DNA of 63,363 bases, counting the filler, from Craspedostauros australis (taxonomy: Eukaryota), in assembly GCA_030167865.1 (NCBI GenBank). It is 9 parts of 9 records of this genome, joined end to end, with 100 filler letters (N's around TTAATTAATTAA, not from the genome) between each part and the next. Parts side by side here need not be neighbours in the genome. Positions count along the whole stretch, not along the records: positions 15,346 to 27,021 come from JALAGF010002165.1; 8 more parts are not named here. One strand, written 5' to 3'. A model generated the notes under the pieces. The model searched no databases and was not told the origin of the DNA. It was given only the letters and a program-made list of their open reading frames with translations. Every line of letters begins with the position of its first letter. Positions within the stretch are counted from its first letter, which is position 1. The position numbers and the translations under genes are program-made. Shown here piece after piece: positions 14,941 to 58,166 of the stretch.

Positions 14941-15104
14941 TCCTGGCAAAATTATCACTTACACGCGGAAATAAACTTGTAGCCAATCATGATGCCTTAA
15001 TTCGTATTGATTTTGATCGTTCTTGTCGTCTCCATGGCTCTATTTGTGTGGCTGGGGTGCCTCGTCTGCATTCGATCTGGAACAACGACATCAACGAGAG
15101 ACAC

Positions 15105-15245
15105 CACAGCACGTCGCAGCACAGCACGTTGCAGCACAGCACGTTGCAGCACAGCACGTCACAGCACAGCACATCGCAGCACAGCACATCGCAGCACAGC
15201 ACATCGCAGCACAGCACATCGCAGCACAGCACATCGCAGCACAGC
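15105..15245. repeat. 15-bp tandem repeat (CACAGCACATCGCAG)n running into the contig end
   Basis: About 9 near-identical units. Confidence 0.95.
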
Positions 15246-15345
15246 NNNNNNNNNNNNNNNNNNNNNNNNNNNNNNNNNNNNNNNNNNNNTTAATTAATTA
15301 ANNNNNNNNNNNNNNNNNNNNNNNNNNNNNNNNNNNNNNNNNNNN
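15246..15345. other. Artificial contig spacer; same at 27022-27121, 33900-33999, 35784-35883, 37553-37652, 39194-39293, 46510-46609, 47979-48078
   Basis: Each is exactly 44 N + TTAATTAATTAA (stops in six frames) + 44 N. Confidence 0.98.
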
Positions 15346-17957
15346 TCGGATCGATCTTGGCACTGGCCTTGATGGTGTGGTTGCCTGTGCCCTTGCCCTT
15401 GTTAACCTCGATTCATACATGACACCTTTTGCAACAAGCCGTTCAATCATCTGCAAACCAAATGCCTTGTGCTCCAATTGATGCTCCTTTTCGACCAGCA
15501 TGTTGTGGGCGATCCAGGCATTCACCCTCAGGATGTCCAGCAGGTGAAACATCAGGGGCATCCACACTCGTCGGCATCGGAGATTCGGTCTGTAGTAGGC
15601 GATGAACTGATCGCACTTGTCCACGCCTCCCATCCAGTGATTGTAGTCGTCAATCATCTTCGGTATGCGAATCCTCACGTTCCAATTGCTCCCCCACACT
15701 TGTTTGAGGTGAGGCTTGTTCGTCTGGGTCTCCCTTGGCTTGTGGCAATCCTTCTGCACTGTCTCATTTCCGTAGTGGATGGTGCTGACCATCAAGACAA
15801 CATTGTTGTCGACCCATCTTGTGATGACGTGATCATCAGATTGTGTCCACAGATACAGCGAATTGAAGCGTCCATCCTCAATATCTTTCAGCTCCTTCGG
15901 AGGGAAGCCACGACGATTCCGAGCAGTGCCAACGATTCCCAGCCCCATTCTCCTGGAGTTCTCAATCACAGTCTTTGTTGTGAAAAGATTATCCATCGCC
16001 ACGATGTGCCCCAAATTTGGATCAAGAACAGCCATCAACTCTTGCACTGTTTTGTTGATCTTCGTTGTCTTATCCAGTCTTCCAGCAGGAAGTATATGGT
16101 ACATGAACCCAGATGCAGAGCAGCACAGCGCGAAGAACTTGTATCCTTCTTTGATGGGCTTTTGCTTTATGCGATGGGTTTGGCTTGATCGGCCTTTGAA
16201 GCGTACCATCATCTTGTCAATGGAGCAGGCAAACCCTGGCTTTGCGCACACCTTCTGAGAGACCCGGTTGGTATGGTCCAGCAGAAGTTGGACCTTGGCA
16301 TACCATGAGCGATTGGAAATGATCACAGGGGGTATCGAAGGTGGTGGTGGTGCAGGTTTGCAGGCTGCCCTGCTCTCGGACCCATGTGGGGCAACATTGT
16401 CAGAGAGGTTGGATAGCGTTGATGAAGATGTTGACGCATCAACTGACGTTCCAGAAGTTGTGGCCGTCTGCGATGATGATCTGGTGCCGCGGCTCTGATC
16501 TGTTGGAGAGACATCATCATCCATATTGTCTGCAGATGTATCGCTGCTGTCAATTGAAGAATCTGACTGGCCATCCGATTGTTCAGCCATTGCAGTGAGA
16601 TGGATGTGATTCCAAATGACTTGGTATCGTGCTCTTGTCATGTATGTCATGAGCTCGTGAGAAGGAATGGAAATGGAAGCAGCTCTCCAGTAGTCCCTCT
16701 TTGCAGGGGCGCCGAAGAAGCCCATGTAGAAGTACATTGCAAGGAATATGTACAGTTCACATACTGTCACCAGTTCNGCCTTGGATCGACTGTTTCGAAT
16801 ATGATTGTTGGTGTGAAGCTGGATGCTCTCCACAAGAGTCTCAGGGAAGAAGATTTCCAAGATGCTCTTGATTGTGGTGGCAATATTTGGTAGTCCACGG
16901 AACTTGGGCTTGTGATTGCCCACAGGGAGTGGTGTGTAGTTGTTTCGATGGTTGCTGTTGATGTTGATGGTGTACTGACTGCCATCAACTGTTGCACGGG
17001 TGCCGATGCTTTCCTGGTTCCCAATGCTTCCTTCAGATGGGTCAGCTGTGATTGCAAAGTCAGTTGTGATGGTTTCATTCGATGGGCTGGCATCAGTTTT
17101 GATGCATGCAGTGTTGCTCTGATTGGATGCCGTCTCCATCTGCGTGGCCATACGTGTTGACATGCATGTGGCCATGCGCCCAGCAATGCCAGATGGATTG
17201 CTGACGATGCTCGTTCCATCCACTGCAGGTAGTGTGACAATGCCGGCATCAATTTTGCGATCCACTGCAGGTGGAATGATGATGCTGGCATCAATTTTGC
17301 CCTCCACCGCAGGTGGAACAATGATGCTGCTCTTGCCATTGGTGTGCATGGTGGTTGATGAATGATTGGTTGTTGGCGGGTTGTCGTCGAGGCCCCTGAG
17401 GGTGGTNNNNNNNNNNNNNNNNNNNNNNNNNNNNNNNNNNNNNNNNNNNNNNNNNNNNNNNNNNNNNNAAACCACATGCGGACGAGAGCTGGTGTAGGGG
17501 AGATCAGGCTCTGCGAAGAAGGACGGCTGGCTGCTGGTTGGTGTGGAAGGTGGCTCCTTGCGCTTGGCACTGGTGAACTTGACCATGATGGATGATCAGT
17601 GTGGTGATGTGATGATGTGATGTTGTGATCTTTTGATTTTATGATGTGATGGGAAGGGGAGATGTGACGACAAAATGGGATGGAGAGACCGAAATTGGGA
17701 GGGACGGGCTCGCCGAATCAATTTTTGCGACAGTCCCGCTGGCCAAAAAACGATTCACGAGTAGTTCAGGCTCTGATTGCGACACANNNNNNNNNNNNNN
17801 NNNNNNNNNNNNNNNNNNNNNNNNNNNNNNNNNNNNNNNNNNNNNNNNNNNNNNNNNNNNNNNNNGATATGTTACACGTAAACGTCGACGTCAAAATGGA
17901 GAATCCGTGAAATTTTTTTGCTATTTGGATTCACTATAGGCCCTGGGTCATGAAGGG
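15346..17957 (-). mobile_element. piggyBac-like DNA transposon; transposase ORF 17586 to <15346, gapped and 3' truncated
   Basis: SIDKMMVRFKGR...KPIKEGYKFFALC, VAMDNLFT, GIVGTAR, WVDNNVVLMVST, YNHWMGGVDKCDQ (DDE_Tnp_1_7 motifs). 42-bp tandem repeats near 17210-17335. The outer end near 17957 (CCCTT.. on minus) is tentative. Confidence 0.9.
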
Positions 17958-18603
17958 ATACGTATTTGTGCTGATAAATCTTCGCACTATCCGTGGGTCT
18001 TCTGTTTTACTCGCCGTGTGACAGCCTTTCTAAGCGAGGGCATTGATTGTCCCAGCACCGCTTCCATGCATACATCTATCCACAGGCATCTGTGATCTGC
18101 CTGCTTTATCTGTATGCCTTTGTCCCAATTGCTGGCTCCTGCTCCTTCCACTCTCACTGCCACTGATGCAAATATACCATTGATTGTTGGCAAGTTCCGC
18201 TTACGGTAACCTACGATCGTGGAAGATGGTGTTGGTTGATAGTTGTTCATTTGCTATTTCGTGACTTGGCTACTCTGATCCTCTCAGTGTACACCAGTTC
18301 TCTTGCCTGATGCTCTCGGTGCTTCAATCTGTTTTGTAGATTTGGTCTCCAACTATGAGTTGGTATGCAAGATGCTCTCTCACTCCTCTCTGTACTCTCT
18401 CTCTCTCTCTCTGTCTCAGCATTGTGTACTTCGTGTTACGCAATACTCCGTGTTTGATGCATGCTCTGCATTTGACACTCTGTTCATTCAGTACTGGCTT
18501 CTACTCCATGAGTACTTACCATTTGAAGTTCATCTTCTGTATCCATGATCCTGATGCCCTTCGGTCATCGGATCTTTGTCTCCTGCTCTGACTTGGAGAC
18601 AGA

Positions 18604-18989
18604 TGTCGACATGGTGACACCATGACATCCTGTCGACGTCAGTAGGCATCCTTCTGCTCTCCAGATGTCACGTTCCATTGGTGATGCAGCAGTCTGTCAG
18701 ATGATATTGTCATCTGAGGTTTAGTTGGGAAGTACCTTGAGATTCTCTTGGTACCATTGATGGATGGACGGACGAGATTTCCAATTCTCTCAGAAATCGT
18801 CGACTGCAAATTTCCTCCAGAAAATCTGCTCATTTTCGTGTGTTCCATTTCCACTGTAATTCTGACGAATCACAGCATACTATCGACACGAATGTAGTTG
18901 TACCGTCCAAGTGCATATGAGAGAATAATGGGTGAACGATGCACATACACTCGTACATCTTGACATATTCACGCATGTACATCTCGACA
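18604..18989. repeat. LTR-like fragment; right ~190 bp is the reverse complement of 36771-36963
   Basis: Terminus ...CATCTCGACA at 18989 matches TGTCGAGATG at 36771. TGTCGACATG at 18604 is a 9/10 inverted match. No TSD found. Confidence 0.65.
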
Positions 18990-19939
18990 CTCGTCCTTGT
19001 CGTGCACCTCATCCGGTTGGTCATCCATGTTGATGGCTTGTGTATCACACTGGACCGTCGGTGGTCTTTCTTCCATTCCCTGTTGTGTTCCTTGTCTGTC
19101 TGGTTTAAGTCTCGCGTTTTCTTCGCTCGTCGTTATCAGCATTCGTTGGAGATCCTCCTTCTGTTTCTGCATTGCTGCCATCATCGCTCTTGTCGTCCCT
19201 GTTGTTCGCCCTGTGCTCCCTGACAATGTCGAGGTCACCGACCCTTGCGCTTGTGCCTCCAATATCTTTCCCATCTGTCCCTGTAGGATTGCCAACTTTT
19301 GTCGTCGCGGTCCTGTGGTTTGCCTGCTTCCTCCTGTCAGCAACGACGTCACAGATTCTTCTTCTTCCCTTTTCTTCTGCGCCTTTTGTTGTTGTGCTGC
19401 CTTCGTTTCCCTGATTCTTCTCCATGCTTTCTTGTCTCTCATTGATGGATTGGTATCTTCTTCGCTGTAGTATTTCTCCTTCCTGACTCCGCTCTCGTAT
19501 CATTCCTCCTCCTCGTCACTGGATACCTGCTCTGTTTTGTTTGTCAAGAAATGCATATCCTCATCCATCATCCTTGCTGCTTCCACTTCCTTGTCCTTCT
19601 CCAAGATCATTCTTTTTGTTTTCTCGTCCCATCTCATCGTCTTCGCCTCAACTCGTGCCATCAATGTAAACACTCTTTCTACTTCGTTGCATTAGTCGGC
19701 TGTCAGCTTGACCAGCAATCGTTTTGCTATCATCCTTGCCTTTGCTGTTTTGTCCAGGTGGAACTGAAGCACGTATCCATTACCTCTCCACTGTTTGTCA
19801 ATCAATGCGAAGAGTGGGGTCTTAGTGTTGCCTGTCGTTGACTTGATCTTCATGATCATCTCTTGAAGTGTCAGGTGTGAGCCTTCTGGAATCTCCTGCA
19901 GGCACTCTGGGATGATGTTGTAGGTGGTCATTGCTACTA

Positions 19940-20144
19940 TCAGCACAAAACCGAATAGTGCTAAGAACGTTACTCCCGTAGCCCCCACTATCTATAAATT
20001 TCACTTGTGTTCGGATCAGCAATCGCATCGCCTGTAGCTCAACGGTAGAGCACCAGTAATTCTAACTGAGGTTCCGGGTTCGAATCCCGGCATGGTACTT
20101 TGCTTTTTGCTCTCCCCTTGTGATTTTTCGATAGTGCTCTTTCA
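19940..20144 (+). mobile_element. 205-bp insertion carrying a tRNA-like Pol III cassette, flanked by 7-bp TSD GCTACTA
   Basis: GCTACTA at 19933-19939 and 20145-20151. Removing the insert and one TSD restores the host ORF1 frame EWCLQVVAMTTYNII. Confidence 0.8.
20028..20098 (+). ncRNA. tRNA-like sequence (pseudo-tRNA or SINE-type head)
   Basis: A box TAGCTCAACGGTAGAGC. Perfect T-arm CCGGG-TTCGAAT-CCCGG. Anticodon arm CAGT/ACTG with atypical loop AATTCTA. Imperfect acceptor stem. TATAAA at 19993-19998 and T5 at 20104-20108. Confidence 0.75.
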
Positions 20145-21248
20145 GCTACTACTTGGAGGCACCATTCCATCTACCTTTCTCTCAATTCGAACCATCCCTT
20201 CCTCATGTCCGTGTTTACGATGCCTGAGAGTGGGATGATGATCCTCATTCAGACTCCAAGTGGGAACTTCTTTGACTGCGTGCTATAGTACACTTCCAGA
20301 ATCTTCGATACCAATGCCCTGTCTTCCGTGCTTGACTCCACATGAAGGGATTGGGGATCACTTTTTGTATCCCTGTTTGGGTCATACTTCTCTCTGTCCA
20401 AGATTCGTTTCCATGTGATCGCTACTTGCATCTTTGCTAGCTTGGTAAGCTCTTCCTCCAAGGCTTCTGTGTCGATTTGGCAGGTCGAGTATAGCAGCCA
20501 TCCCAGCATTGTTGTAGATGGTGCTTGAATTTTGGCTACCTCGAACCTACCTCCAATGTGTTGGAAGAAGTCAGTCAGCTCTCCAGTGATTCGGCTGATC
20601 TGCTCTTTTGCCTTTATCTTCACCCTTAGATATCATTTCTCTTGTGCGGCCTTGTAGATTGGTCGTACGCCTTTGAAGAACTTCTTCAGGTTCGTCATGT
20701 CGGTAGGGAATGACTCCATTGCGTGGACGATTGTTTGATCTTTGTAGGGATTCCATGGCAAGAGTTTCGCCATTGTGTTCACTCTCTGTATCGACCATAG
20801 GAACTCCTTGCACCACGCAATGGCTGCATCGATGGCTGTTCCTGCGTTGTTGGCTCCGTCCCCTCCTTCGATCATCATCTGCACGTCGCAGTATCTTGTC
20901 TCCACTGCATTCTCCTTCGTGCACTTCCCCCATTTCACTCTGCTCTCATTGCTGCCTGCTTGTGTGGCTTCGTCACAGTCCATTGCTTGTTCCTTGATTC
21001 CTGGATCCCCTCTTTTCTTTGTGTGCCATCCAGTTGCTGGTGGTTGTGATGATCTCCACTTCTCCTGTTGGTCTTGTTTCATCTTTTCCTTCCATTGCTC
21101 TGGTCATCGCCTTCTCCCCCTCCTTCCCTGATCCTTGCAGGTCCTTCCTGTTGTGTGGTTGTTCCTCTTGCAAAGTGTGTCTTGGGCTTCGGACCGTCCT
21201 CTTCTTGCTCTCTCCTGTCTCCTCTTTCTTCCCCTTGTGTGCCTCGTT

Positions 21249-21995
21249 TGTCAACATCTAGATCGCAATTTAGGCTAACATCACACATGACTGGAACGTG
21301 ATTCGACTCGATTGATAGTATAGTCGAATGAGTCTTGATGATGCGAATGGTGTTCGGGTTCTATTGTCATCAGATATGACGTAGGCACTGACATCAGCGA
21401 ATGACGTCAGAGGATCGTCACTGAGGTCCGAGGAATTAAGAATAAATGTTAGTTATGGTATGTTGACTTGTCTAGTGACGCCAGGTGCATCGGTGAGCAC
21501 GTGGCAACAACAATTAGGAAATAGTCCTGTGATGTCAGGGATGATGCAAGCAATCTACTGATGTCAACAGTTGGGATATATGAATCCTATGGGATTCCAA
21601 GACCAGCCAAGACCGGGCAAGATTAGACAAGATCAGACAGAGATGTAGAAAGACCCAAGAGGAGAAATAACACAAGTCACTGCGCAAAGCAGACAACACC
21701 CTTGGGCAACAAAGTAGAAAATATGCCTGATGTAACATGAAGACATCAAGCAGATCAGTAGGAAGACCTGATGATGAATCAGGCAAGATTGTAGAAATGG
21801 TGCATGAACGCATCAGATTAGGATGAGTGAGATCTTGTGCTCACAATTTCAAACTCAATCATCAATTGACTACAACTAACTTAGAACACAACAAACACCA
21901 AACATCTCCAACTTCACCTGACGGATTGATCACCCAGGCGGTGTCGTAAGTGCAGTGTTTGGTGCCCTTGACTTGTATGCAATTGCTGATTATCA
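21249..21995. mobile_element. Solo LTR (747 bp), TG...CA, 5-bp TSD TCGTT
   Basis: TCGTT at 21244-21248 and 21996-22000. Ends TGTCAAC...ATTATCA. Excision rejoins ORF1 as ATKEGENEAHKGKKE. Confidence 0.85.
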
Positions 21996-23435
21996 TCGTT
22001 CTCTCCTTCCTTTGTTGCTCTCTCCCATTTGTCGGACCATTCAATTTCTTCTTCACTGCTTTCTTCATCGTTGTCTCCTTTTGGGTCCTTCCTGTCTAGT
22101 GTGTTGCTCTCTGCAGTCTTGTTGTCTTCAGCCTTGTCCATTGGTGCAACCTTGCTTGATTGCTCTTCCATCTTGTCTTCTCCCTTCTTGCTTCCTTCTG
22201 CCTCTTTCTGCTCTTCCTTTTCCATGTCTTTGGTGTTTTTCATCTTCCCCTACTTCTTGCTCATCACCTTTCTGATTGCATCTTTGGATGATCCCATGTA
22301 TTGCTGTCCTGTTTTCTCTTCTTTCCCATTGATCCCTTCCTTCTCAATGCACTGCTTGCACACAACTGGGAATCCTCTTGGCATTGTTAGCCCTTCTTCT
22401 GGCTTGATCCACGCTCTACATTCCCTGTGTGCTGGCTCTCCACATGCAGTGCATCTAACTGCCACCACTGCCTTTCCTCATCCTTTGCAGTACTTTCCTG
22501 CTGCACACTCGACCTTGCGCACTCCTTGTCCTTGTTGTCCATCGTTCTTTTCCATTTCCGCACTGTTCTTTCTTCTGCTAAGCCCTCCTTTGGCCTCTCT
22601 CTCCCCTCTGTGTCCTCCTGTGGTTTTGTTGTTGGTTGCTCCTCTGATGTACACTTCTATCAGCATTTGCCCTGACGGTCATGTCATCTTGCTGCTTGGT
22701 GTCGTCATTGTTGGTTCGTTGCTTTACTAGTTAATTTTCTTGTCTGTTGTCTTTCTTTGATTTGTTTATTCGTGTTGTTTTGCTGTGACAATTTCTTCTG
22801 GAATTTTTGTTCCGTTTGGAAATTGTACACTGCTCCACTCATACTCTTTGCAAGGTGCGCGCACATGCTGTTGCGTAGCTACTTGGATCGCGGGTATGTT
22901 ACAACGACTCGTGCGTAGACATGGTACTTTTTCAGGCGTTCAATTGAGAACCACCCATCAACCAAGATCGACTCACCACCACAAACTCAGAAGAAACCAG
23001 AACCCCAACCAAAGAGCGAAGGACATCGAAGAAGAGATCTCATTTGCAACGGGCATGAGTGGATGCGCAAACCGATCTCACATCGACCATGGCCATCCAT
23101 CATTGATTGCTCCAGCAGCAAGGATACAGCGACGAGACACACCCGCACCTGTCAACGACAGCGCACGAGAATCCAAATTCCCAACGGTGCCATCTCGTGC
23201 AAGGGTCCTTTGGGACAACATCTTCGGACAGCTTGTCTGCGCCATCCATTCTTCCGATCCGCGTGAGAATTCTGCTAGAGCTTGGCTCCTGCTCGATTAC
23301 CCCACGCACTCAATCGCAGTACAAGCTATTGTGCGAGAAGGAGTGTTCTACTCTATACTCGTACATCCGATGCGTTTACATCGCAAGAACGCCGGCCGCC
23401 GATCTGCTGGATCCGCAAGGAGGAGATCTGCCTTC

Positions 23436-26384
23436 ATGAGGCGAGGTTCGCTTTCGACCATCAGCGGCTGTGCTGTGTTCGTGGCATCCGTCACGATGAT
23501 GACGAGCATGGCCACCATGGCAAGAAGCGTGGCTGCATGGCAAGGATCGCCGTTGCACACAACAGCAGCACGACGGCATCTCTTCGCCAACAAGATCTCG
23601 ATTCTCCATGGTGCGCAGCATTCCAGGCAGCAAACACTCATTCCTTCAGCTGCTGCTGTTGCTGCTGCTCGTTTGCCGTGGGGTGCGTCCCTCTTCCAAA
23701 CCGGAACCTCTAGCGATGCAGGCGGTGACAATGGAATAGCGGCGGTATCTGCATCTACGACGGCGTCAGGGACGAGCACTGCCACCACGAACCGAGTCCC
23801 GACCAACCAAGAAATCGTGGAGCGTCGGTTGGATGCAATCAAAGAAAAGCGGTTGGCCCGTCAGCAATCTTCGACGCAACGTCGTGAGCGCAACCTGCAT
23901 CTCAAAAGGTTGCTACACACGCAATCAGGTGGTGCTGATTACGCTGTCCCTCCCCTGTACGCCGTCAAGGTGTGGGTCGCAGATGGCTTTCGCGATGAAT
24001 TGAAATTGACGGGACGGGAAAAGCGTGGCAGGGTATTCTTGGAACGCAGCAAGGTCCAGACCTTCCATGATCTCAAGGGTGAGATGCATGCTTTCTTCCG
24101 TGCCTTGCGCAAGGATACGTACCTGCTGGAGGCTAGCTTGCCGGTCGTCACGGAAGAGGGCACCATCCTGTCGCCGTCGGAATATGATGACGATGCGACC
24201 GAATCATGGCCGATTCGTACCGATGCGGACGTCGCGCGGGCGTTCCGGGCAGCAGATGACCTCTTCCAATCGAACACGACCAACTTGGTGCGTCCATCGA
24301 TGGTCATTTCCGTCCTGGAGAATCCGGATGCTCCCAAACCTCCACCGATTCCATCGTATTTGGTGGATCTGCCCGATCCACAAGATGCCGAAACCATGAC
24401 GATGATCTCCTTCTACAGCTTCCCACCGAACGGTGGCATCGACGACCCCGAGCAGTTTGCGGCACAGCTACGCAAGACATGGAAGCCATTCCATGCCCTC
24501 GGACGTGTTTACGTGGCGCACGAAGGCGTCAATGCGCAGATGAGCATCCCATCGAACGTGCTGGACAACTTCATGGAATGCTGCCGATCCATACCGGAGC
24601 TCGAACACATGGAGAATGACATCAACATCGATCCTAAACCATTGACTATGGAAGAGTTCGCAGTGGCTGGCGTTCCCAACCGTGGCAAACCAGCGCCGCC
24701 GTTCCGCAATTTGCACGTTCGGGTGCGTCATCAGGTGGTCGCGGATGGGTTGGACAAGTCTTTGGATTGGCAGTCGGCCGGGTACGATATGCCGCCGCTG
24801 GAGTGGCATGAGACTCTGAAGCAGGCGAGCCAACGCGCGAATGAAAAATCTGGCTCGAATGCAACCGCGAGTGCGGACGCTTTGGACGCCCCGCCCATTG
24901 TGCTGGACTGCCGCAACACGTACGAAACGGATGTCGGTATTTTCGATGGAGCCGAGCCGCTGAACACTGACAACTTCCGAGATTCATGGGATGTCCTGAA
25001 GGAACGGCTGGCGGATACACCGAAAGATGCCCCTATCATGACGTACTGCACGGGCGGCATCCGCTGCGTCAAGGTGGGAGCCTACCTGACGCAGGAGATG
25101 GGCTTCACCAACGTGTCGCGATTGGCGGGTGGCATCATCGCCTACGACCGCACGGTCTCGCAGGAGGTTCCAGACGAAGAATCCATGTTCAAGGGCACGA
25201 ACTTCGTCTTCGATGGTCGGCTGGGCCGCAGCATCACAGATGATTCCCTCGCCGTTTGCATCACATGCGGCGGGCAGACTTCGTTGGTGAGCAACTGTCG
25301 CAATGACAATTGCCACAAGCGCATGGTCCAGTGCGAGCGCTGCCGCACAGACTTCATGGGCACATGCTCCGACGCATGCCGCACCCGCGTCATTAACGGT
25401 GCCATGGCTCCACGTCGTGGGACGCCAGGTGGCGGCGTTTCCGGTGAGGAAGACGATTCGCAAGATCTGGATTCTTCCAGCGGCGAGACAATATCCACAA
25501 CAACGTACGATTCCATCGACGACTACAGCATCGGCCATTCCACGTCTGCGCCATGCTTGTTCTCTGAAATGGAGCTCAACACGAGAGCCTTCTTTCCTTC
25601 GGGTGCCCACATGGTGTCCGGCGAATCGCAAGGACGGTTTCTGACCCAGCTCACCGCCATGGCACGCGAAGGCCGCGTGCTGGAATTGGGAACGTTCAGC
25701 GGATACGCGACGGCGTGCTTTTGGGAAGGTGCGCGCGATGCCGGTGCCGCGATGCAAACCACAGGAAACAAGGATCATGGTCCGTACATTTTGACGATGG
25801 AACGGGATCGACGCGCCTTTCAGCTGGCCCATGCGCAGCTGAAGGTGATTGGTGAGCAGGGCATGGAGGGCGCTGCGAAGGAGATGGCAGCTTTGCGTGA
25901 TGATCCTTCGTCGCTGCCGGAGTTGCAAGACACCAAGATCACGCTGCCGCCGTTGGATGGCGTTGCTGCATGCGATATGTGGCATGTGACGGATGCCCTT
26001 GCCACCGTCGAAGAATTGGCCGCGGGCAAAGGTGGGGATGACCAACCCGCACCATTCGACATTGTCTTTGTCGATGCCGACAAAACGCGGCTGTTGGATT
26101 ACGTCGAGGCCTGCCTGGCCAACGACAACGTGCTGAAGAAGGGTGGCATGATTTTGGTCGACAACGTACTGTGGAAAGGCCTCGTGCTGGAGGCAAGCCA
26201 GGGAAGCTTCACCTCCGTCGCGGACACGCACGATGCCGGGAAGGAAGAGCTGCGCAAGAATCGACGCGCGCGTAAACTGGCAACGCAGATGCATCGATTC
26301 AACGAGGCCATCGCCAAAGATGAACGGGTGGATGTGCAATTGTTTCCCATCCGCGATGGTCTCAGCATGATACGGAAGAAGTAG
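23436..26384 (+). CDS. Fusion of TrhO/UPF0176 rhodanese (tRNA U34 hydroxylase family) and class I cation-dependent O-methyltransferase (CCoAOMT/TrmR-like); putative plastid presequence
   Basis: TrhO motifs ISFYSF, LGRVYVAHEGVNAQMS, LDCRNTYETDVGIFDGA, YCTGGIRC (Cys codon at 25047), FKGTNFVFDGR and a Cys-rich tail. OMT motifs VLELGTFSGY, FDIVFVDADK, GGMILVDNVLWKG, PIRDGL. Start is ATG 23436 or 23370. Hydrophobic leader ends SVAA-W. Confidence 0.88.
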   Translation: MRRGSLSTISGCAVFVASVTMMTSMATMARSVAAWQGSPLHTTAARRHLFANKISILHGAQHSRQQTLIPSAAAVAAARLPWGASLFQTGTSSDAGGDNGIAAVSASTTASGTSTATTNRVPTNQEIVERRLDAIKEKRLARQQSSTQRRERNLHLKRLLHTQSGGADYAVPPLYAVKVWVADGFRDELKLTGREKRGRVFLERSKVQTFHDLKGEMHAFFRALRKDTYLLEASLPVVTEEGTILSPSEYDDDATESWPIRTDADVARAFRAADDLFQSNTTNLVRPSMVISVLENPDAPKPPPIPSYLVDLPDPQDAETMTMISFYSFPPNGGIDDPEQFAAQLRKTWKPFHALGRVYVAHEGVNAQMSIPSNVLDNFMECCRSIPELEHMENDINIDPKPLTMEEFAVAGVPNRGKPAPPFRNLHVRVRHQVVADGLDKSLDWQSAGYDMPPLEWHETLKQASQRANEKSGSNATASADALDAPPIVLDCRNTYETDVGIFDGAEPLNTDNFRDSWDVLKERLADTPKDAPIMTYCTGGIRCVKVGAYLTQEMGFTNVSRLAGGIIAYDRTVSQEVPDEESMFKGTNFVFDGRLGRSITDDSLAVCITCGGQTSLVSNCRNDNCHKRMVQCERCRTDFMGTCSDACRTRVINGAMAPRRGTPGGGVSGEEDDSQDLDSSSGETISTTTYDSIDDYSIGHSTSAPCLFSEMELNTRAFFPSGAHMVSGESQGRFLTQLTAMAREGRVLELGTFSGYATACFWEGARDAGAAMQTTGNKDHGPYILTMERDRRAFQLAHAQLKVIGEQGMEGAAKEMAALRDDPSSLPELQDTKITLPPLDGVAACDMWHVTDALATVEELAAGKGGDDQPAPFDIVFVDADKTRLLDYVEACLANDNVLKKGGMILVDNVLWKGLVLEASQGSFTSVADTHDAGKEELRKNRRARKLATQMHRFNEAIAKDERVDVQLFPIRDGLSMIRKK

Positions 26385-26826
26385 GTTGGCACGGAAGATG
26401 CGACAGTAGGTATTATATAATAATATTTAGTTTAGGCAACATTAGAATTGGTACGTTGAGTTGTTTTGGTTCGTGGCTACACTCGCTCCGTAGATACGAG
26501 TTGAGTGGGCTCGGGCACGTGTCGCGGAAGCGAAGGCAATGACACGAATCCTTCCCATTGGCTGTTGTTGTGATGGTGCAGAATCCGCGCAGAAAAGAAC
26601 GTTCGAGAAGGAACATGGATCCTGGCCCATGATGACACATGAAATGGAAGCAACAGGGACACCCAACATTTTGTCCAGAAGATCCATCTTGAACGTGATT
26701 GAAAGTTTTCGACATGACATTTTCTCTCTTTTGACAGAACTGATCGAGAAAACGATAGTGTTGCTCATTTTTACTAGTTTCCAAAATTTGNNNNNNNNNN
26801 NNNNNNNNNNNNNNNNNNNNNNNNNN

Positions 26827-26965: not shown

Positions 26966-27121
26966 AAACACAGACATGAGCCAAGCACACGTGTAAACAA
27001 AAATGACTACGGAGACAAGTGNNNNNNNNNNNNNNNNNNNNNNNNNNNNNNNNNNNNNNNNNNNNTTAATTAATTAANNNNNNNNNNNNNNNNNNNNNNN
27101 NNNNNNNNNNNNNNNNNNNNN

Positions 27122-33783: not shown

Positions 33784-33999
33784 TGCTTGTCTGTTCAACA
33801 CGACCTCACACACGAGATGATGTCGCGTTGCACGACACGTTTGACGCAAGTGTCAGCAGGAGCGCCTCTGGAACCCAAAAGAAGCCACGCTTCATTCCCN
33901 NNNNNNNNNNNNNNNNNNNNNNNNNNNNNNNNNNNNNNNNNNNTTAATTAATTAANNNNNNNNNNNNNNNNNNNNNNNNNNNNNNNNNNNNNNNNNNNN

Positions 34000-35783: not shown

Positions 35784-35883
35784 NNNNNNNNNNNNNNNNN
35801 NNNNNNNNNNNNNNNNNNNNNNNNNNNTTAATTAATTAANNNNNNNNNNNNNNNNNNNNNNNNNNNNNNNNNNNNNNNNNNNN

Positions 35884-36770: not shown

Positions 36771-36963
36771 TGTCGAGATGTACATGCGTGTATATGTCGA
36801 GATGTACGAGTATATGTGCATCGTTCATCCGTTATTCTCTCATACGCACTTGGACGGTATAACTACACTCGTGTCAATAGTATACTGTGATTCGTCAGAA
36901 TTACAGTGGAAATGGAACACACGAAAATGAGCAAGATTTCTGGAGGAAATTTGTAATCGACGA
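36771..36963. repeat. LTR-like terminus shared with ~18797-18989
   Basis: Starts TGTCGAGATGTAC. Colinear reverse-complement similarity over ~190 bp. Confidence 0.75.
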
Positions 36964-37652
36964 ATGATTCTGGCTTGCTTGCGTGCTCAGGACGCGAAGT
37001 GATGCACTCTCAGGCACACAGATGACAGTCTTCTATTGCTTATCTGTTGTTGGTGTATTGCTGATACACTCCGTGTTGTGAACCAGATTGTGACCGCACG
37101 CCATGAATCCAACAAAGACACATGCTCTGTTCGTTTTTTCCCTTTGTGTTGTTTCAGCCACAAACACTCCGCCTCGGTTGCTTATGACTGTACGGTCACA
37201 GAATCTTTGACCAATACGAGCTACACGACTCGTTTGACCCCAAAACTCGCTCTGTCCCCTCGTTGAATTGGCATATGCTGGCTGTATGCCTGACCGCCAT
37301 CTGTGCCTATACAACGCCCCTCATCGTTGTAGTATGCGCGCAGGAAAAACGGCATTTTGCCTCCCAAAAAACCTCGCGCGTTCGCTACCCTTCATGCGAC
37401 TCCCCATGGCTATCTGTTAATACAGAAACCTACACAAAAGCGTCTCCCGTTTTGGGGCCGCCATGGTTTTGGTGAACACATCTGCCAGATTGGTCAGTGT
37501 GTCCTCTTTCGCGACTCTAATGATCCCACTTGCCACAGCTTCCCTGCACCGGNNNNNNNNNNNNNNNNNNNNNNNNNNNNNNNNNNNNNNNNNNNNTTAA
37601 TTAATTAANNNNNNNNNNNNNNNNNNNNNNNNNNNNNNNNNNNNNNNNNNNN

Positions 37653-39193
37653 AAGAAGGGAGAGAATCCGGATCTCTTCTTGACGGACATGGAGGTCCTT
37701 CGCAACCGATTGATCGACCAGGAGGTGATCATCGATGCGGAGCAGTTCAACATGCTCGTGCTCAACGCGCTCTGCCGCGAGTACGAGATGGACGTGAAGC
37801 TGCTCGAACTCAAGTTCCACGGAAAGGAACGAGAGATGACCGTGGGCGACATCCGTGAAGCTGTGAGCCTAACCTACGACCGCCACCATCTCAAACATGG
37901 TTATAAGCGCGCAGGCAACAGCAGCAACGAGGAGCTCGCTCTGTTCGGAGCTGGACAGTTCAAGGGAAACTGTCGCAACTGCGGTGCCTACGGGCACAAG
38001 AAGGCGGACTGTCGTGCGCCAGCCAAGGGAGGCAACAACAAGAGAGGCGGTGGGTCCAAGAAGAAGGGCAACCACGCCGACGCCAAGGGCGGATCCAAGA
38101 AAGGGGGATTCGACGGCAAGTGCAACTACTGCGGAAAGGTAGGGCACAAGATCATCCAATGCTTCAAGCTGAAGGCAGCAATGAAGGAAGCTGAGAGCGC
38201 TAACATGGCGATGGACGGCGACGAAGCGATGGACGATATGGCACTCGTCATCGCAGACGGTAATTTCGTTGAGATTGACGATCTCGACGAGATCGAACTC
38301 GAAAGCGCACTCGAAGAGGATCTCTTTGAAATCATGGAGACGTTCCCTTCGACTGAAGCAGTCGAATCACCAACCAACGAAGGCATCCGCGACCTCATGA
38401 ACGGTGACTTGCTCGAATCAGACGAGAGCATTGGGGACACCGAAATCGCGATGCCAGGCGTCGATATCAACAATGCGCCACCTGCGCAAGATGAGGAAGC
38501 AGCGGGCACTCGGATGAGTAACGCCATCGACTACTTCCTGCGCGACGAAATCGACCGCGTGTGTGAACGCAGCAGGACGGATGCATGGTGTCCAATCTGC
38601 CTCGCGCGTGGAGCGATGTATTCGTGGTGCACAGGATGCACCGAATTCGACGTGCTCAAGATTCGAGCACGTTGGGCGTTCAGAGACATCCCAACAACCA
38701 CGGAACCTGAAAGGATCCGCCGTCGAGCAATCCTGAGCAGGTTCAACTGTTTGGAAGACGCAATCAGAGTCTCTCTATCCAACGTGTTGGCAGCCAACGA
38801 CGTGTGTATCAACGACGCGCTCCTCTGTTTCGATGTGAGGAAGAAGTCCATCGAAGACGGAGCTAACTGCATGGGAGCTCGAGAGCTCTACTATATGCTG
38901 ACTCAAATCGGCTTCAACGGAGCATTCGATGTGTCATGCAAGATTGTGGTCATCAACGAACTGCTCGAAGAGAAAGGGCTACCACTACTTCCCAAACACC
39001 TGATCATGAGGATGAGCAAGATGGCCGCATCAAGGCTCATGTGGATGCACAATTGGGAGGACACCGAAGTACGCGACGGGCTGGAATGTCCAGAACTCCC
39101 CAAGACCAGACCACTTGTGGGAAGTCCTCAACACCAAGTCGAGATGATGGAGCATTTCAATACAGCAAGATTCGGTCACGAGATGGCCATGGT
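37653..39193 (+). mobile_element. Ty1/copia gag fragment with two CCHC knuckles and an extra downstream domain; open at both contig ends
   Basis: GENPDLFLTDMEVLRNRL (gag-like), CRNCGAYGHKKADC and CNYCGKVGHKIIQC, then CPIC..WCTGC. Confidence 0.75.
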
Positions 39194-39293
39194 NNNNNNN
39201 NNNNNNNNNNNNNNNNNNNNNNNNNNNNNNNNNNNNNTTAATTAATTAANNNNNNNNNNNNNNNNNNNNNNNNNNNNNNNNNNNNNNNNNNNN

Positions 39294-40087: not shown

Positions 40088-40340
40088 GGACACTCGGCAA
40101 ATGTATCAACCACGTCAGTATTCGACTAATTCGACCTAATCGCTCTTCTCCTTCAATTCTTCGCTTCGTTCTCCTCTTCGAAGGCCATCGCTGTAAAAAG
40201 TACGTTGGCAAGGATATGTTAAATAATGGCTCTCACTTAAATATCAATGGCATTTCTTCAGGCATACACATGCCGTTTTGATATTTGTTGTTCAAGCTAT
40301 CGAGTCCCGTGAAATATCTCTCCGGAACAAAAAATGGAGG
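40088..40340. repeat. Dispersed non-coding repeat similar to 46610-46860
   Basis: Shared blocks ggacac.cggcaaat, attcgacta, ttgatatttgttgtt.aagctatcgagtcccg, ctctccggaa. Confidence 0.75.
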
Positions 40341-40885: not shown

Positions 40886-42604
40886 ATGGCTTCCGCTGAA
40901 GACAACGCTCCGCCCGCTGCGACGGTGTCCACCGCTCAAACCATCTCTCTCCGCCTCGGGTGGAAGTGGTTCCCGGATGACATGGCCGATCTTCAGGTGC
41001 GCTCGGATGAGGAACTCTACGACCTCCTCTGCGCGCCTGATGATGGCTTCCACGAGTGCCTCTGCGCATGGTCCGCCAAGAGTCCGCTTCATGTGCGACA
41101 CTTGTGGCGGCTCCGCGCGTGGTACCTGAAGACTGGCGAAGACGACGAGCATTGGGCGACCAGCCTCTCGGCGCGCGAGTTCCGTCCATTCATGCGCCTC
41201 GAGAATCCGATCCCTTCCGCCTTCCGCTCCGTGCCCTCGTCGGTGGCCTCCGTCGCTTCGCGCCGTGATGAACGCAGCCCTGGTGCGGACGACGCGGTCG
41301 TTGACATTTCCAAGGTTCGCGATCCTGCTGATGAGCCGCCGCCTGACGATGCTCGTGGGTCTGGCAATGGTGGTGCTCCTGGCGTTGGTGCTCCTTCTAC
41401 TGCACCTGCCGTGGACTCTCGCACTCTACCACCTGCCGATTTCACGACTCCTCGTCTCCCGGCGGAGGACTTCGACTACGTCACTGACTCTGGAGTCGAC
41501 TACTCTGTGGCCAACGCCAGCCCTGCGTTCCGGCGGCACCGTACCTACGAGGTCCCGCCCGCTCTTGAGCGTCTGGACTACGGTGTTCGTCAGGCCTGGG
41601 ACAAGTGGCGCCTGCCCCTCAAGGATGACTCGCCCACCGCGATCTTCAACTGGTATGGCCAGTTCCAGGCTGCTGCTGCACGTGCGGACTTGCACTCTTG
41701 CCCGCTGAGTTCGTTCCAGCCATCCTCTTCTGTCATTCCTCGCAATGCCCACGGTCACCGTGTCTTTGCCATGAATGACCAGCTGGTGGTGAAGCTGCAG
41801 GCCGACGGCGTCATCAACATGGAGCATGCCGCGCTACGCCTGAAGTACACCAGCAGCATCGGCATCATGCCGCACCGGCTTTCCGCGTACGTCTTCATCC
41901 ATACACTGCTCTCCGGCGCGTATGATGCCGTCCAATCGCAGGTCCACAAGGCTCCAGCTTTTCAAGGATCCGTTGCGACGTACGCTGAACAGCTGCTCAG
42001 CTTCCAGCTTGTGGAGGGCCTCGTGTTTCGCCGACACATCTCCCAGCTGGAGCTCACGCGCCACTTCCTTGAGGAACTTCGTGGCCATGGGTACGAACTG
42101 GGGCACTTCCATACTGCCGTCCGTGGCGTTGCCGTGCCCAAGGACCTTCCCATCAATCTACGCGTGGAGCAACTTGGGCAGGAAATTGCGGATCTCCCCC
42201 AGCAGCCTGCTCGAGGTGTCGCGCATCGTGTCAACACGCGCAGTCAAGGACGCGGTGGCGGTGGTGGCCGAGGCCAACGTCCCGAGAGGCGCCAGCACGC
42301 CTTTTCCAAGCCGGTGCCTGGTGCCTTCTGTGAGGCCTGCTGCAACATGGGTCACACCAAGGACACGTGCAAGACTTTTGGGCGCCATGCGCACATGAAC
42401 GCATATGCTGCGTCACATTCGGAATATGCTGACGCCATGCGTGACAAGTTCCGCGGGCACTTCACCAAGCAGACCTTCACGGCCAACGCTCGGGCCATCC
42501 AGCGCTACAGCGGGGATGAACATGAGTCCATTGCCAACCTCGTGGTGTCCGATGAAGTGCTCGAATCCGTTGACCAGGATTTTTGGTCTGCCGGCCAGGA
42601 GTAA
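40886..42604 (+). CDS. gag: Copia Gag
   Basis: Long ORF from accATGG with zinc knuckle CEACCNMGHTKDTC; TAA at 42602-42604. Confidence 0.85.
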   Translation: MASAEDNAPPAATVSTAQTISLRLGWKWFPDDMADLQVRSDEELYDLLCAPDDGFHECLCAWSAKSPLHVRHLWRLRAWYLKTGEDDEHWATSLSAREFRPFMRLENPIPSAFRSVPSSVASVASRRDERSPGADDAVVDISKVRDPADEPPPDDARGSGNGGAPGVGAPSTAPAVDSRTLPPADFTTPRLPAEDFDYVTDSGVDYSVANASPAFRRHRTYEVPPALERLDYGVRQAWDKWRLPLKDDSPTAIFNWYGQFQAAAARADLHSCPLSSFQPSSSVIPRNAHGHRVFAMNDQLVVKLQADGVINMEHAALRLKYTSSIGIMPHRLSAYVFIHTLLSGAYDAVQSQVHKAPAFQGSVATYAEQLLSFQLVEGLVFRRHISQLELTRHFLEELRGHGYELGHFHTAVRGVAVPKDLPINLRVEQLGQEIADLPQQPARGVAHRVNTRSQGRGGGGGRGQRPERRQHAFSKPVPGAFCEACCNMGHTKDTCKTFGRHAHMNAYAASHSEYADAMRDKFRGHFTKQTFTANARAIQRYSGDEHESIANLVVSDEVLESVDQDFWSAGQE

Positions 42605-45600
42605 GCGAACTCTCTGGTGAACGGCCATCTTTCAACAATCGCAACAGCGGGAAACCAGCAGGTCATCACGTTGATGAGGTTTCCGTGCTCGCTCTTCCTG
42701 CTCCCTCCGCCATCCAGCCACATAATCTTATGGGATATGCTGTGGTCAGGGCCTGCCGCGTTCACGCCGCTCGTACTGATGGCCCCAGCATTCGGGCCTG
42801 GAATCCTTATGGCGGTGTGGGTCAATGCGACATTGGTGCCAATGTGAGCGCGACTCCGTACAAGGAGGTCCTGAGGGATTACCAGCCTTTCTCCTCACCT
42901 CTCATGCTGGCGGCAGCTGATGCTCTCGCTGAGTCCATGGTATGCCCGGGTGAAGGCTTCCTGGACGTTCCCACGTGCGAGGGGTCGGCTATCTCCGTCC
43001 GGACTGCACTCTGCCCCAACCTGGCTGAGACGCTCATCTCGCCGCAGTCCATCGTGCGACAGAGTGACAACGCCTTCCAGCGCTTCACATTTACAACCAC
43101 CCTACAAGGCGCCACACTCACGTTCCATGGTGCAAGCGGTGAGTGCTCTGCCTCTATGACCCAGTCCAATGGATTGTACTTCTTCAACGGCGACTCCACG
43201 CGGTCACCCATGGCGTTCGCCATTCAGACTTCGTCACTGGCCTTACAGGCGGAGCTATGGCACTTGCGCCTGGGACACCCTGGCATGTCGCAGTTGGAGA
43301 AGTTGCCTGCGCATGTCACTGGCGTCCCTGGCAAGCTACGGTCCAACGCACACCCGTTGCGACACTGCACGACGTGCAGCCAGGCTCACCGCCAGAAGGC
43401 CGCTCGCGGACCCAACGTGGACGCTGTCGAACCGCATCCAGGCGCTCGGTTCCATGCAGACTTCGGTTTCATGCGTGCCACCAACAAGGCATACGGTGCT
43501 GCAAAGCCGCGCGGTCGCGATGCCAATCGCCGTGTTGTCCTGTCCCTTGAAGGATTCACGTCGTACCTCCTCATCACGGATGCGTACACGCGATACACGT
43601 GGGTGTTTCCGACGAAGGACAGGTCGCCTCCGGTTGAGATATTCTCCAAACTTCTGGGTGATTTTGGCCGACGTTCGGGTCATCGCGCGGTGCGTGTCGA
43701 TACAGGCGGGGAGCTTGCTCGATCTGGAGCTTTCCAAGTGGCCGTCCGCGATGCTGGGTACAATCTCGAGCCCACTGGCGCTGGTTGCTCCTGGATGAAT
43801 GGGAAAGTGGAGCGTCTGAACCGCACTTTCGGCGTCATGACGAGGGCACTGCTGTATTCCGCGGGTCTCAAGCCGCAGTTCTGGGCCCTTGCGCTCGTGC
43901 ATTCGGTATACCTGAAGAACCGGTTGTGGCATGCCTCCATCTCCAAGACTCCCTACGAGCTCCAACATGGGGTCAAGCCAGATCTCGGGCACCTACGTGT
44001 TTTTGGGTCTCGTGTCACTGTCCGGAAGCCAGGGCATCCGCCTGCCAAGCTTGACGTTCACACGTACAATGGCATCTTCGTGGGACACACGGCGACACCG
44101 ACTCTCCACCAATACTACGACCTTGATTCTGGCCGCATCAAAACAGCCGGCAACATCGTCTTCGACGAGGTCCACTTCACATCCAGCAATCGGCCTCCAG
44201 GACCGCAACTTCTGTTCGAGCTGGGATTCCGTGACCCCCGAGGTGATGCAGCATTGGTCCCTACGAAGGACGGCGCGCTCAAGGGTGACAATGCGGATGC
44301 AGGGCGTACACCCGTTGAGACATGCGTTGCGTGTGGTGATTCGGAATTGCACGCAGCCGCTGCCGCATGCTCATCCACACCTCGTCGTTTCGCACGGTCG
44401 CTGGAAATGACAAGTGAACCTTTCGGTTTTCCGTTCGCGCAGGACATTGAGGTGAATGGGTCTGATCCATGCGCTGGGTTGGTGCTGGTGACCGACGATG
44501 CTTGCGGGCGACTGCAGCTGCAGACTTGCAAGCCTGGCACTCCAGCGGCTCGCATTCCCAGGTGGCGGTCGCGGCTACGGTCTGCACATCTGCTTACCCT
44601 CGATGGCGACGACGTGTTGCGTGGTGATGATGTCGTCCGCATCGTTTCGAACGCAAGACAGCGCCAGACGAGTCCAATCATCGCTATCTTCGCTTTCGAT
44701 GAGGCACGCAATGCACTCTCCCAACAAGGTGTTCCACAACTCTACTTCGACCAGCTACGACATGTTAAGGACGTCATCCGGCAGATATCGCCACGCGCTC
44801 GCGCCGTTGCTGCTGCACCCAAACTCACGCGGCGCAAGTTGCTGTTGGGCGATGACTGGGATGAGTGGCAAGCTGCAGAATTCAAGCAGATGGAGCAATA
44901 CCACCATCAAGGGATGTTCGGCGATCCAGTGGAGCCTCCATCTGGCGCGGCTGTGTTCAACTGGGTCTGGGTATATGTCGTGAAAGCCCACGAGAACAAT
45001 CGCAAGAAGGCCCGCGCGGTGTGTGACGGTTCCACCCGAGGCGGCAACGTCCGTGTATTTGGTCACACGTATGCTGCCACTCCCGACCTCACCGAGTTCC
45101 GCATTCTTGTGGCCATCGCGGCTGTCCAGCGCCTGCTCATCTTTGGGGCTGATGTTGCCAATGCATTTGCTGAAGCTCCAGCAAGCGCCCAACGATATTA
45201 CATGAAGGTGGACGATCAGTTCCGTTCGTGGTGGGAGCACAAACATGATGCTACAATTCCGCGTGGCCATGTTGTGCCTGTCCTCAAGAACCTACAGGGT
45301 CACCCTGAGGCGCCTCGGCAGTGGAGTATTCATGTCAATGGAATCATGCGCCGCATGGGCCTGACATCCACCACCCACGCTCCATGTCTCTACACTGGGG
45401 TCGTTCAGAGCGAGCGCGTCTACATCTTGCGACAAGTCGACGATTTCGCCGTGGCAACCGCTCGACAGAGCACCTACATCGCGTTCTGCGATTTACTCGA
45501 CAAGCAGCTCAACCAACCGATCACTCGACATGGGCTCTTCTCACACTACAATGGACTTGATCTCACGCAAGGAAGGTCGCATGTGACGGTACACTGTACT

Positions 45601-46509
45601 ACGTATCTGAACAAAGTGCTGCAAAAGCATGGTTGGAAAGACCTGCGGTCGTCACAACGACTTCCCATGCGTGCTGACAATGGGTACATCAAGCAACTGG
45701 ACAATGCTGAGGTCCCGGCTACTGACGGTGAGCGACGACAGCTACAGTCGGCATTTTTCAATTATCGACAGGCCATCGGCGAGCTGATTTGGGCCATGGT
45801 GTCTTGCCGTCCCGACATTTCGTTCCCGGTGGTGAAGCTCAGCCAGTTCTCTATCAATCCGGCCAAGCTCCATTATGAGGCAGTCAAGTACCTCTTCCGC
45901 TACATCGCTGCCACGCGGGAGCTTGGGATCACCTACTGGCGACCGTCACCACTGCCTGATCTTCCTGATATCCTGGTGCCCGTCCCTCTTTCACCACCGG
46001 AGGACGTTTCGCATAACGTGGATGGTCATACAACGGTCCGGTTCTCCACGGTCTATGGCTACGTGGATGCTGACTGGGGATCCGATATTCGACATCGGCG
46101 CTCTGTCACTGGCATCGTGTTCATGTTCGGCGGCGCTGCCGTCGCATGGAAGACCAGAGTCCAGCCAACTGTGTCCCTCAGCAGCTCCGAAGCCGAATTC
46201 GTTGCTGCCAGCGATGCTGGCCGCATGGCTCTGTGGCTTCGCTCCATCCTCGATGAGATCGGGGTGCCTCAGCAGCACGCAACTCTCATCTTCGAGGACA
46301 ACCGAGGAGCACGCATGATGGCCAATGCAAGTCAGCCTACACGGAATTCGAGACATATTGATATCCGGACCTTCGCAGTCAGTGACTGGGTGGATCGGGA
46401 TCTTATTCTTATCGAGGACGTCGCGTCCGATCTCAACGCTGCAGATGCGTGTACCAAGCAAACGCCTTCGGTTCTCTTCTTCCGCCATACTGACTTGATC
46501 ATGGGTCGC
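42574..46509 (+). CDS. pol: Copia Pol (PR, integrase, PDZ-like, RT, RNase H), in the -1 frame relative to gag
   Basis: CDIGAN, ELWHLRLGH..CTTC, HADFG/DAYTRY/DTGGE/NGKVERLNRT, KARAVCDG, ADVANAF, RQVDDF, YVDADWG, SSSEAEF, EDNRGA, RHIDIR. Confidence 0.93.
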
Positions 46510-46609
46510 NNNNNNNNNNNNNNNNNNNNNNNNNNNNNNNNNNNNNNNNNNNNTTAATTAATTAANNNNNNNNNNNNNNNNNNNNNNNNNNNNNNNNNNN
46601 NNNNNNNNN

Positions 46610-46860
46610 GGGACACCCGGCAAATACATCAAACAAGCATACATTCGACTAGTGCGACCTCATCGCGCTTCTTCTTCAGTCTCAGCGTCTCGTGATCATT
46701 TTGAAGTTCCACCACTGCAGAAGTGCGTTGGGAATGATAGGTTAAGTAGTGGGTAACATCGAAATGCCAATGATATTTAATCAAACACATTCAAGGCACA
46801 TTGATATTTGTTGTTGAAGCTATCGAGTCCCGCCCAACACCTCTCCGGAAAGAAAAATGA
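46610..46860. repeat. Second copy of the dispersed repeat at 40088-40340
   Basis: Colinear similarity by eye. Confidence 0.75.
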
Positions 46861-57927: not shown

Positions 57928-58166
57928 TTTTCATGGCATGATCGCAACTTTGCGAGGGATGATGTTGGGCATGTCCATTATACAACGGGTGTAGAGTAGA
58001 GCCATTTCGTTTTACTCCCCTCCATTCATCATGCTGCGTATGGTAGTGCGTGTCTAGCCTGTAGTGGCGTACACTCATCACCCGAGGGGCTCCCCAACCC
58101 AACATGCTTGTGCATGCTGTCATCGTCAAGGCCTTGACGATCCGTTGGTGAGCCCTCGCCCTCATT

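Follow-up and report, generated by a model that had tools for sequence, protein, structure and literature searches.

Helenus elements are non-autonomous retrotransposons of the long terminal repeat (LTR) type whose LTRs resemble transfer RNA (tRNA) genes; they were described in 2024 and grouped with Cassandra and Ajax under the name TRIMp3 (Kojima, PMC10886601; this paper is cited throughout from those parts of it that were available to us). Their repeats, 100-320 bp in length, carry the tRNA-like part in the sense orientation with conserved A and B boxes, and this part is unlikely to be a working tRNA. The LTR consensus consists of a leader of tens of bases, the tRNA-like part, a short tail bearing a T4 run, and a terminal CA; in the internal part, a primer-binding site follows the first LTR and a G-rich purine run stands at the end. 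Whole elements measure about 311-1263 bp and have no coding capacity. Their target duplications are 5 bp in fungi and in the plant host and 4 bp in animals, and solo LTRs with 5-bp duplications are common in fungal Helenus. The fungal and plant elements are linked to Copia helpers, for which 5-bp duplications are likewise reported, and the fungal families appear to be Copia-dependent. Helenus is held to have had several origins, and sequence kinship is not required for membership; the hosts named in the available parts of the paper are fungi, six animal phyla and Selaginella, with no stramenopile among them. Here we describe an insert at positions 19938-20144 of a stretch of 63,363 nucleotides (hereafter the window) from the genome of the pennate diatom Craspedostauros australis (assembly GCA_030167865.1). 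The insert is a mobile sequence that belongs to a repeat family and carries a tRNA-derived unit, and it is probably a solo LTR of an element of this design.

No report of Helenus/TRIMp3 elements or of tRNA-like LTRs in diatoms was found in the open-access literature searched. For diatom elements of other kinds we rely on partial texts of two papers: a 4-letter duplication, TTCC, is given for one element (Maumus 2009, PMC2806351), and the repeats of P. tricornutum are listed as including 13 'putative SINE' copies (short interspersed elements) and 27 'putative TRIM/LARD' copies (terminal-repeat retrotransposons in miniature or large retrotransposon derivatives), with no long interspersed element (LINE) in the table (PMC5859163, Table 2).

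Insertion of a mobile sequence into a decayed reading frame

The features of the insert and of the open reading frame (ORF) that it interrupts are as follows.

19933-19939: left copy of the direct repeat GCTACTA (read from the sequence and found by repeat scan)
19938-20144, plus strand: mobile element, proposed solo LTR, 207 bp as TA...CA (205 bp if its start is at 19940)
19993-19998, plus strand: TATAAA, 30 nt 5' of position 1 of the tRNA-like segment and in the proposed U3; its function is presumed
20020: CAA
20028-20098, plus strand: tRNA-derived segment with a degenerate acceptor stem and a non-canonical loop, AATTCTA; proposed core of R
20035-20045, plus strand: A-box-like TAGCTCAACGG
20077-20087, plus strand: perfect B box GGTTCGAATCC (read from the sequence and seen in the Rfam alignment)
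20104-20108, plus strand: first T5 run, resembling a terminator of RNA polymerase III (Pol III)
20124-20128, plus strand: second T5 run, within the proposed U5
20145-20151: right copy of GCTACTA (on a 5-bp reading, GCTAC occupies 20145-20149)
19695-19937, minus strand: downstream part of the broken ORF, which is decayed and belongs to an uncharacterised protein family (from homologue alignments)
20152-20632, minus strand: upstream part of the same ORF; two stops occur in frame near 20150-20251

To the left and right of the 205 bp at 19940-20144 stand perfect copies of GCTACTA, as seen both by reading the sequence and by repeat scan. This heptamer can also be divided into a 5-bp duplication, GCTAC (19933-19937 on the left), and a TA belonging to the element itself (19938-19939). 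A duplication of 7 bp would lie within the range for LINE-mediated insertion.

The best 20 relatives of the interrupted ORF (P0121-P0140) were aligned by tblastn with the region as it is and with 212 nt removed in silico. With the intact region, 15 of the 20 homologues align as two pieces that lie in different frames and abut the insert, one piece ending at 20141-20153 and the other beginning at 19934-19946; the homologue residues at the break are contiguous (686 and 685 in P0122). When the 212 nt are removed, the same 15 homologues give a single piece in one frame across the site. The remaining five are short proteins that terminate before the insertion site. In P0122, the 34 residues between the aligned pieces correspond to 34 codons in the window after the removal. 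The data clearly show that the insert is a true insertion of a mobile sequence and not a chance repeat, as had been anticipated in the original prediction, which held that its removal would restore the host frame.

The upstream piece of the interrupted ORF (20252-20632) has 80 relatives at E <= 0.001 in a representative protein library, and the downstream piece (19695-19937) aligns with the same proteins. In-frame stops persist after the insert is removed, indicating that the ORF is decayed. The original prediction had taken this host for a retroelement. This is unsupported, since no Pfam family was found at E <= 0.001 in six of six homologues, and among the host pieces in the window four had no Pfam match and two had matches below the cut-offs only (Mso1_Sec1_bdg; C1/PHD-like fingers). 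The decayed host region as a whole (18970-22480, minus strand) belongs to a family of proteins of 600-990 residues without a Pfam domain, and a weak PHD/C1-like finger is present in it at 22253-22477.

The promoter boxes, the CAA and the T runs of the insert were read directly from the sequence, the consensus for the A box being taken from general knowledge and from section 3.5 of PMC10886601. The Rfam tRNA model matches 20033-20092 on the plus strand locally, over model positions 6-65 of 71, with 35.4 bits where the gathering score is 29. tRNA is the sole Rfam family above threshold in the whole 63-kb window, and this is its sole such match. ARAGORN, on the other hand, called no tRNA in the insert. 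Four of the seven acceptor-stem pairs are possible by our own count, the loop AATTCTA is borne by a 4-bp stem, and the centroid fold is cloverleaf-like, yet no more stable than those of shuffled sequences (z = -0.1). In view of the local nature of the Rfam match, the absence of an ARAGORN call, the four of seven acceptor pairs and the shuffled-level fold, a working tRNA gene was rejected; judged by its sequence, the segment is a tRNA-derived module with intact internal promoter boxes. A scan for bacterial-type promoters and terminators found nothing, and is irrelevant to a eukaryote.

Other details of the insert were likewise as first described. ATAGTGCT occurs twice in it, at 19955 and 20131 (repeat scan), and AGCAC at 19942 and GTGCT at 19958 can be read in its left end. 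The 3' end reads ...GATAGTGCTCTTTCA, and no A-rich, simple-repeat or LINE-derived tail is seen there. Terminal inverted repeats were not found: none of six inverted pairs has arms at both ends of the element, and the best pairs are internal. A miniature inverted-repeat transposable element was rejected on this ground. No second copy of the insert is present within the window.

Further copies in a sequencing run

The contigs of one public sequencing run (X1; the type of the run is a guess), available as graph contigs, were compared with the window over 17866-26790. One 565-nt contig is identical to 25872-26436, which shows that the same or a very close organism is present in the run. Within the compared interval, coverage by the X1 contigs is nearly confined to the insert. 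A contig matching 19938-20087 extends leftwards by a further 76 letters that do not resemble the window; a second, matching 20089-20145, extends rightwards by 168 letters that do not resemble it either. Over 20058-20145 at least five contigs are mutually different, and variants are present at 20015, 20088 and 20104; at the last position one T fewer is found in a depth of 326.9 out of 429.2, meaning that the first T run is mostly T4. As the contigs match 19938-20145 and then diverge on both sides, the insert belongs to a repeat family, the other copies of which share both ends within 1-2 nt and have different neighbours. A family with conserved ends had been predicted, and the conservation includes the approximately 90 bp upstream of the tRNA-like part: the X1 copy shares 19938-20027, 5' of the tRNA-like head, with the same left end. 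An ordinary SINE would not extend in this manner, in agreement with the original prediction.

On the left, the X1 match extends two bases beyond the boundary originally drawn at 19940, to 19938. On this ground TA is tentatively counted with the element, and the 5-bp duplication GCTAC, of the length given for fungal and plant Helenus, is favored; the window copy is the one copy for which both flanks are seen. The 7-bp target duplication first proposed thus stands as a perfect 7-bp repeat, but not as a necessary 7-bp duplication, 5 bp plus TA being possible.

Of each flank of the X1 copies, 30 letters were inspected. The left flank ends ...GTAGGGGAG immediately 5' of TATCAGCAC, and the seven letters that touch the element, AGGGGAG, are all purines. 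On the right, the terminal CA is followed by GAG TGGTAGGATGCTGTC..., with TGG located 3 nt after the CA (GAG-TGGTAGG...). The two flanks form no duplication with each other at a 4-, 5- or 7-bp reading, as is expected of internal element sequence and not of target DNA. The purine run and the TGG look like a polypurine tract preceding a 3' LTR and a primer-binding site following a 5' LTR, respectively, and their orientation is that expected if the tRNA-like part lies in the sense direction within the LTR. The chance of encountering both features is roughly 1 in 1000, a figure estimated post hoc.

A 28-mer and a 30-mer from the X1 flanks gave no matches in the window at up to three mismatches, and a 13-mer gave two weak matches where 1.46 are expected by chance. 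Two probes, 26 nt from the leader and 22 nt from the anticodon region, had no exact matches in metagenome contigs, and exact-pattern scans of viral contigs and of prokaryote genome contigs were also without matches; the organism is perhaps absent from all of these collections. When the element's open frame of 41 residues was used in a protein search for ORFs running into the flanks, no candidate was returned. Two properties of X1 were not used as evidence: it does not cover the host flanks 18164-19653 and 20250-25613, and in it the leader is less deeply covered than 20058-20140, contig depth representing neither copy number nor expression.

Nature of the insert

Taken together, these results make it probable that the insert is a solo LTR (19938-20144, 5'-TA...CA-3') of a diatom LTR retrotransposon family whose LTRs carry a sense-oriented Pol III unit of tRNA origin. 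A solo LTR with an internal Pol III promoter was one of three possibilities raised in the original prediction; the X1 flanks have strengthened it, and the lack of inverted repeats has weakened another, a DNA-level element. The third, an element of a new kind, is not supported, as Helenus/TRIMp3 elements with tRNA-like LTRs are described in the parts of PMC10886601 available to us. What is found here would be a known element design, in a lineage where it is apparently unreported.

The likeness to Helenus lies in the order of parts: the tRNA-like part, sense-oriented and with its A and B boxes, is preceded by a leader and followed by a short tail that holds T runs and closes with CA. To this may be added the X1 flanks, which fit a primer-binding site and a polypurine tract. 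The differences from the published elements, again as far as the available parts of PMC10886601 go, are several. The host is a pennate diatom, absent from the host list of that paper. The TGG of the putative primer-binding site suggests pairing with the 3' end of a tRNA, whereas in most fungal Helenus the anticodon loop is used. An 18-mer of the D arm, TAGCTCAACGGTAGAGCA, occurs in two Helenus families, and this sharing reflects tRNA ancestry only.

Other known systems are less similar. Cassandra, a plant TRIM whose LTRs carry a Pol III promoter derived from 5S ribosomal RNA (rRNA), and the nemertean Ajax, with a 5S promoter too, follow the logic proposed for the insert, a Pol III promoter of a small-RNA gene within the LTR of a miniature element, but the module of the insert is derived from tRNA and not from 5S, Rfam matching it to tRNA only. 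SINEs derived from tRNA (SINE2) are likewise short, with A and B boxes in a tRNA-derived part and a flanking duplication; in contrast to them, the insert carries approximately 90 bp upstream of the head, has internal T5 runs and has no A-rich or LINE-derived tail. The CoDi Copia elements of diatoms are a likely source of reverse transcriptase and integrase, and Copia pieces are present in the window, although no CoDi LTR with a tRNA-like part was found in the available portions of PMC2806351 and PMC5859163.

By analogy with LTR elements in general and with the accessible account in Kojima 2024 (PMC10886601), a life cycle can be proposed. U3 would extend from 19938 to about 20019 and contain TATAAA; R would start near 20020, some 8-15 nt 5' of the A box, and end at the T run 20104-20108 or at 20124-20128; and U5 would be the rest, up to the terminal CA. 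The full-length parent would comprise an LTR, a primer-binding site, a short internal part, a polypurine tract and a second LTR. Transcription, presumably by Pol III, would begin in the LTR, and some of it would pass the weak T runs and so arrive at the primer-binding site. An autonomous Copia element would supply in trans the proteins for reverse transcription and integration; pieces of Copia gag and pol are found in the same window (RVT_2, gag_pre-integrs, zf-CCHC). Integration would produce the 5-bp duplication GCTAC, and recombination between the two LTRs would finally leave the solo LTR within the decayed ORF.

A number of observations weigh against the insert being such an LTR. Its 5' end is TA (TAT), both in the window and in the X1 copy, in place of the TG of Helenus (TGT in eight of eight Helenus LTR starts seen in the available material), although the CA at the 3' end agrees. 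The repeat that flanks it is a perfect 7 bp, unlike the duplications given for Helenus in the same material, and the 5-bp reading requires a coincidence of 2 nt, 1 in 16; given the X1 match, the 7-bp reading likewise requires a 2-nt coincidence. Neither the window nor the 30 letters inspected of each X1 flank contained a full-length element, a second LTR or an internal part. Graph contigs may mix copies, and the two X1 flanks possibly come from different elements. No tRNA has been matched to the putative primer-binding site TGGTAGGATGC... Outside the tRNA part, none of six 12-mers of the insert occurs in the published Helenus consensus file, in which matches across line breaks are undetectable; there is no sequence kinship by this comparison. 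Finally, the two T5 runs between the tRNA-like part and the end of the LTR would halt much of the Pol III transcription, which poses a genuine problem for a cycle driven by Pol III alone. In the X1 depth T4 predominates at the first of these runs, and the available Helenus consensus LTRs likewise carry T4 runs.

The T runs bear also on a second scenario, that the insert is the LTR of an autonomous Copia-type element in which the tRNA-like part was picked up as a passenger (for instance a SINE or tRNA that inserted long ago in U3/R) and transcription is by RNA polymerase II (Pol II) from TATAAA; T5 runs hinder Pol III and not Pol II. We regard this as rather unlikely. The TATAAA is situated 30 nt 5' of the tRNA-like part, Copia pieces are present in the window, and Copia dominates the P. 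tricornutum repeat annotation in the available part of PMC5859163 (Table 2), all of which would suit such a parent. Yet the A and B boxes have remained intact though tRNA function was lost, which suggests selection on the promoter, and the window contains no Copia element with this LTR or with a primer-binding site of the X1 type (the two weak matches mentioned above, with 1.46 expected).

Still less likely, in our view, is a stand-alone, non-autonomous DNA-level element of 205 bp (19940-20144), moved with 7-bp duplications by an unidentified transposase and carrying the Pol III unit as cargo. The perfect 7-bp direct repeat and the short length of the insert are compatible with this, and a DNA transposon is present nearby in the form of a piggyBac transposase ORF (15301-17595). 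The target duplications of piggyBac, however, are TTAA and not 7 bp, terminal inverted repeats are lacking, the X1 match takes in the TA before 19940, and the X1 flanks resemble a polypurine tract and a primer-binding site. In its strict form this scenario calls for a 205-bp cassette with a real 7-bp duplication, its own upstream TATA and a complete Pol III unit, but with neither inverted ends nor an LTR parent, whose movement, as DNA or by some unknown route, would depend on machinery not yet assigned to a described superfamily; this we judge very unlikely.

A SINE of unusual form, mobilized by a LINE from an RNA that starts about 90 nt upstream of the tRNA-like head, would account for the tRNA-derived part with its A and B boxes and for a repeat of this length, but is extremely improbable, as the upstream part is present in full in the X1 copy, with the same end point, an A-rich or simple-repeat tail is missing while two T5 runs are internal, the X1 flanks are of the kind described, and the P. 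tricornutum repeat table, for that species only, is without a LINE.

If the insert is confirmed as a solo LTR with a tRNA-derived promoter, LTR elements driven by tRNA-derived Pol III units (TRIMp3) would extend to stramenopiles, and a further independent origin of the tRNA-promoter LTR design would be implied. Elements like it could also underlie the tRNA-like 'putative SINEs' of diatom genomes; the 13 P. tricornutum copies listed without a LINE partner in the available part of PMC5859163 are a candidate case, which is offered as a suggestion and not as a result. LTRs of this type would swell the counts of predicted tRNAs and SINEs and spread potential Pol III units among genes.

Surroundings of the insert

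The insert is located in the contig at 15346-27021. The window is a chain of separate contigs, and adjacency across a linker is therefore meaningless. The eight linkers are identical, each consisting of 44 N, TTAATTAATTAA and 44 N, with stops in all six frames.

Linkers: 15246-15345, 27022-27121, 33900-33999, 35784-35883, 37553-37652, 39194-39293, 46510-46609, 47979-48078

The ORF at 24201-26381, in the same contig as the insert, has its best named relatives among the raphid pennate diatoms (Cylindrotheca, Nitzschia, Seminavis, Pseudo-nitzschia, Amphora and Fistulifera), with identities of 60-67%. A 1207-codon open frame at 22761-26384 (plus strand), an interval that takes in these positions, is a fusion of a UPF0176/rhodanese (TrhO-like) part and an O-methyltransferase that is kept across diatoms at 50-67% identity. 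The piggyBac-type ORF (15301-17595, minus strand), which is found in this contig too, is long, has a transposase domain, DDE_Tnp_1_7, at E = 5.8e-48, and is broken by runs of N.

A repeat of about 190 bp, 92% identical between its two copies, is present at 18797-18989 (plus strand), inside the decayed host ORF region, and at 36771-36963 (minus strand) in another contig, and may be a second small mobile element. The Copia pieces lie at 37653-39193 and 42574-46509 (both plus strand) and are cut by contig ends; a zinc knuckle is present in gag, and gag_pre-integrs, SH3_retrovirus and RVT_2 in pol. A possible LTR pair, 74% identical, is found at 40198-40336 and 46721-46859.

Tandem arrays were also observed: one at 7-179, at the start of the window, with a 20-nt unit resembling TGCATTTAATGCACTCCAAA, and one at 15072-15245, adjoining a linker, with a 15-nt unit resembling CAGCACAGCACRTYG. 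A segment of about 2.3 kb is duplicated in tandem at 58134-61792 with 69-77% identity, and this duplication contains two minus-strand Glyco_transf_61 ORFs (58170-59702 and 60467-62128).

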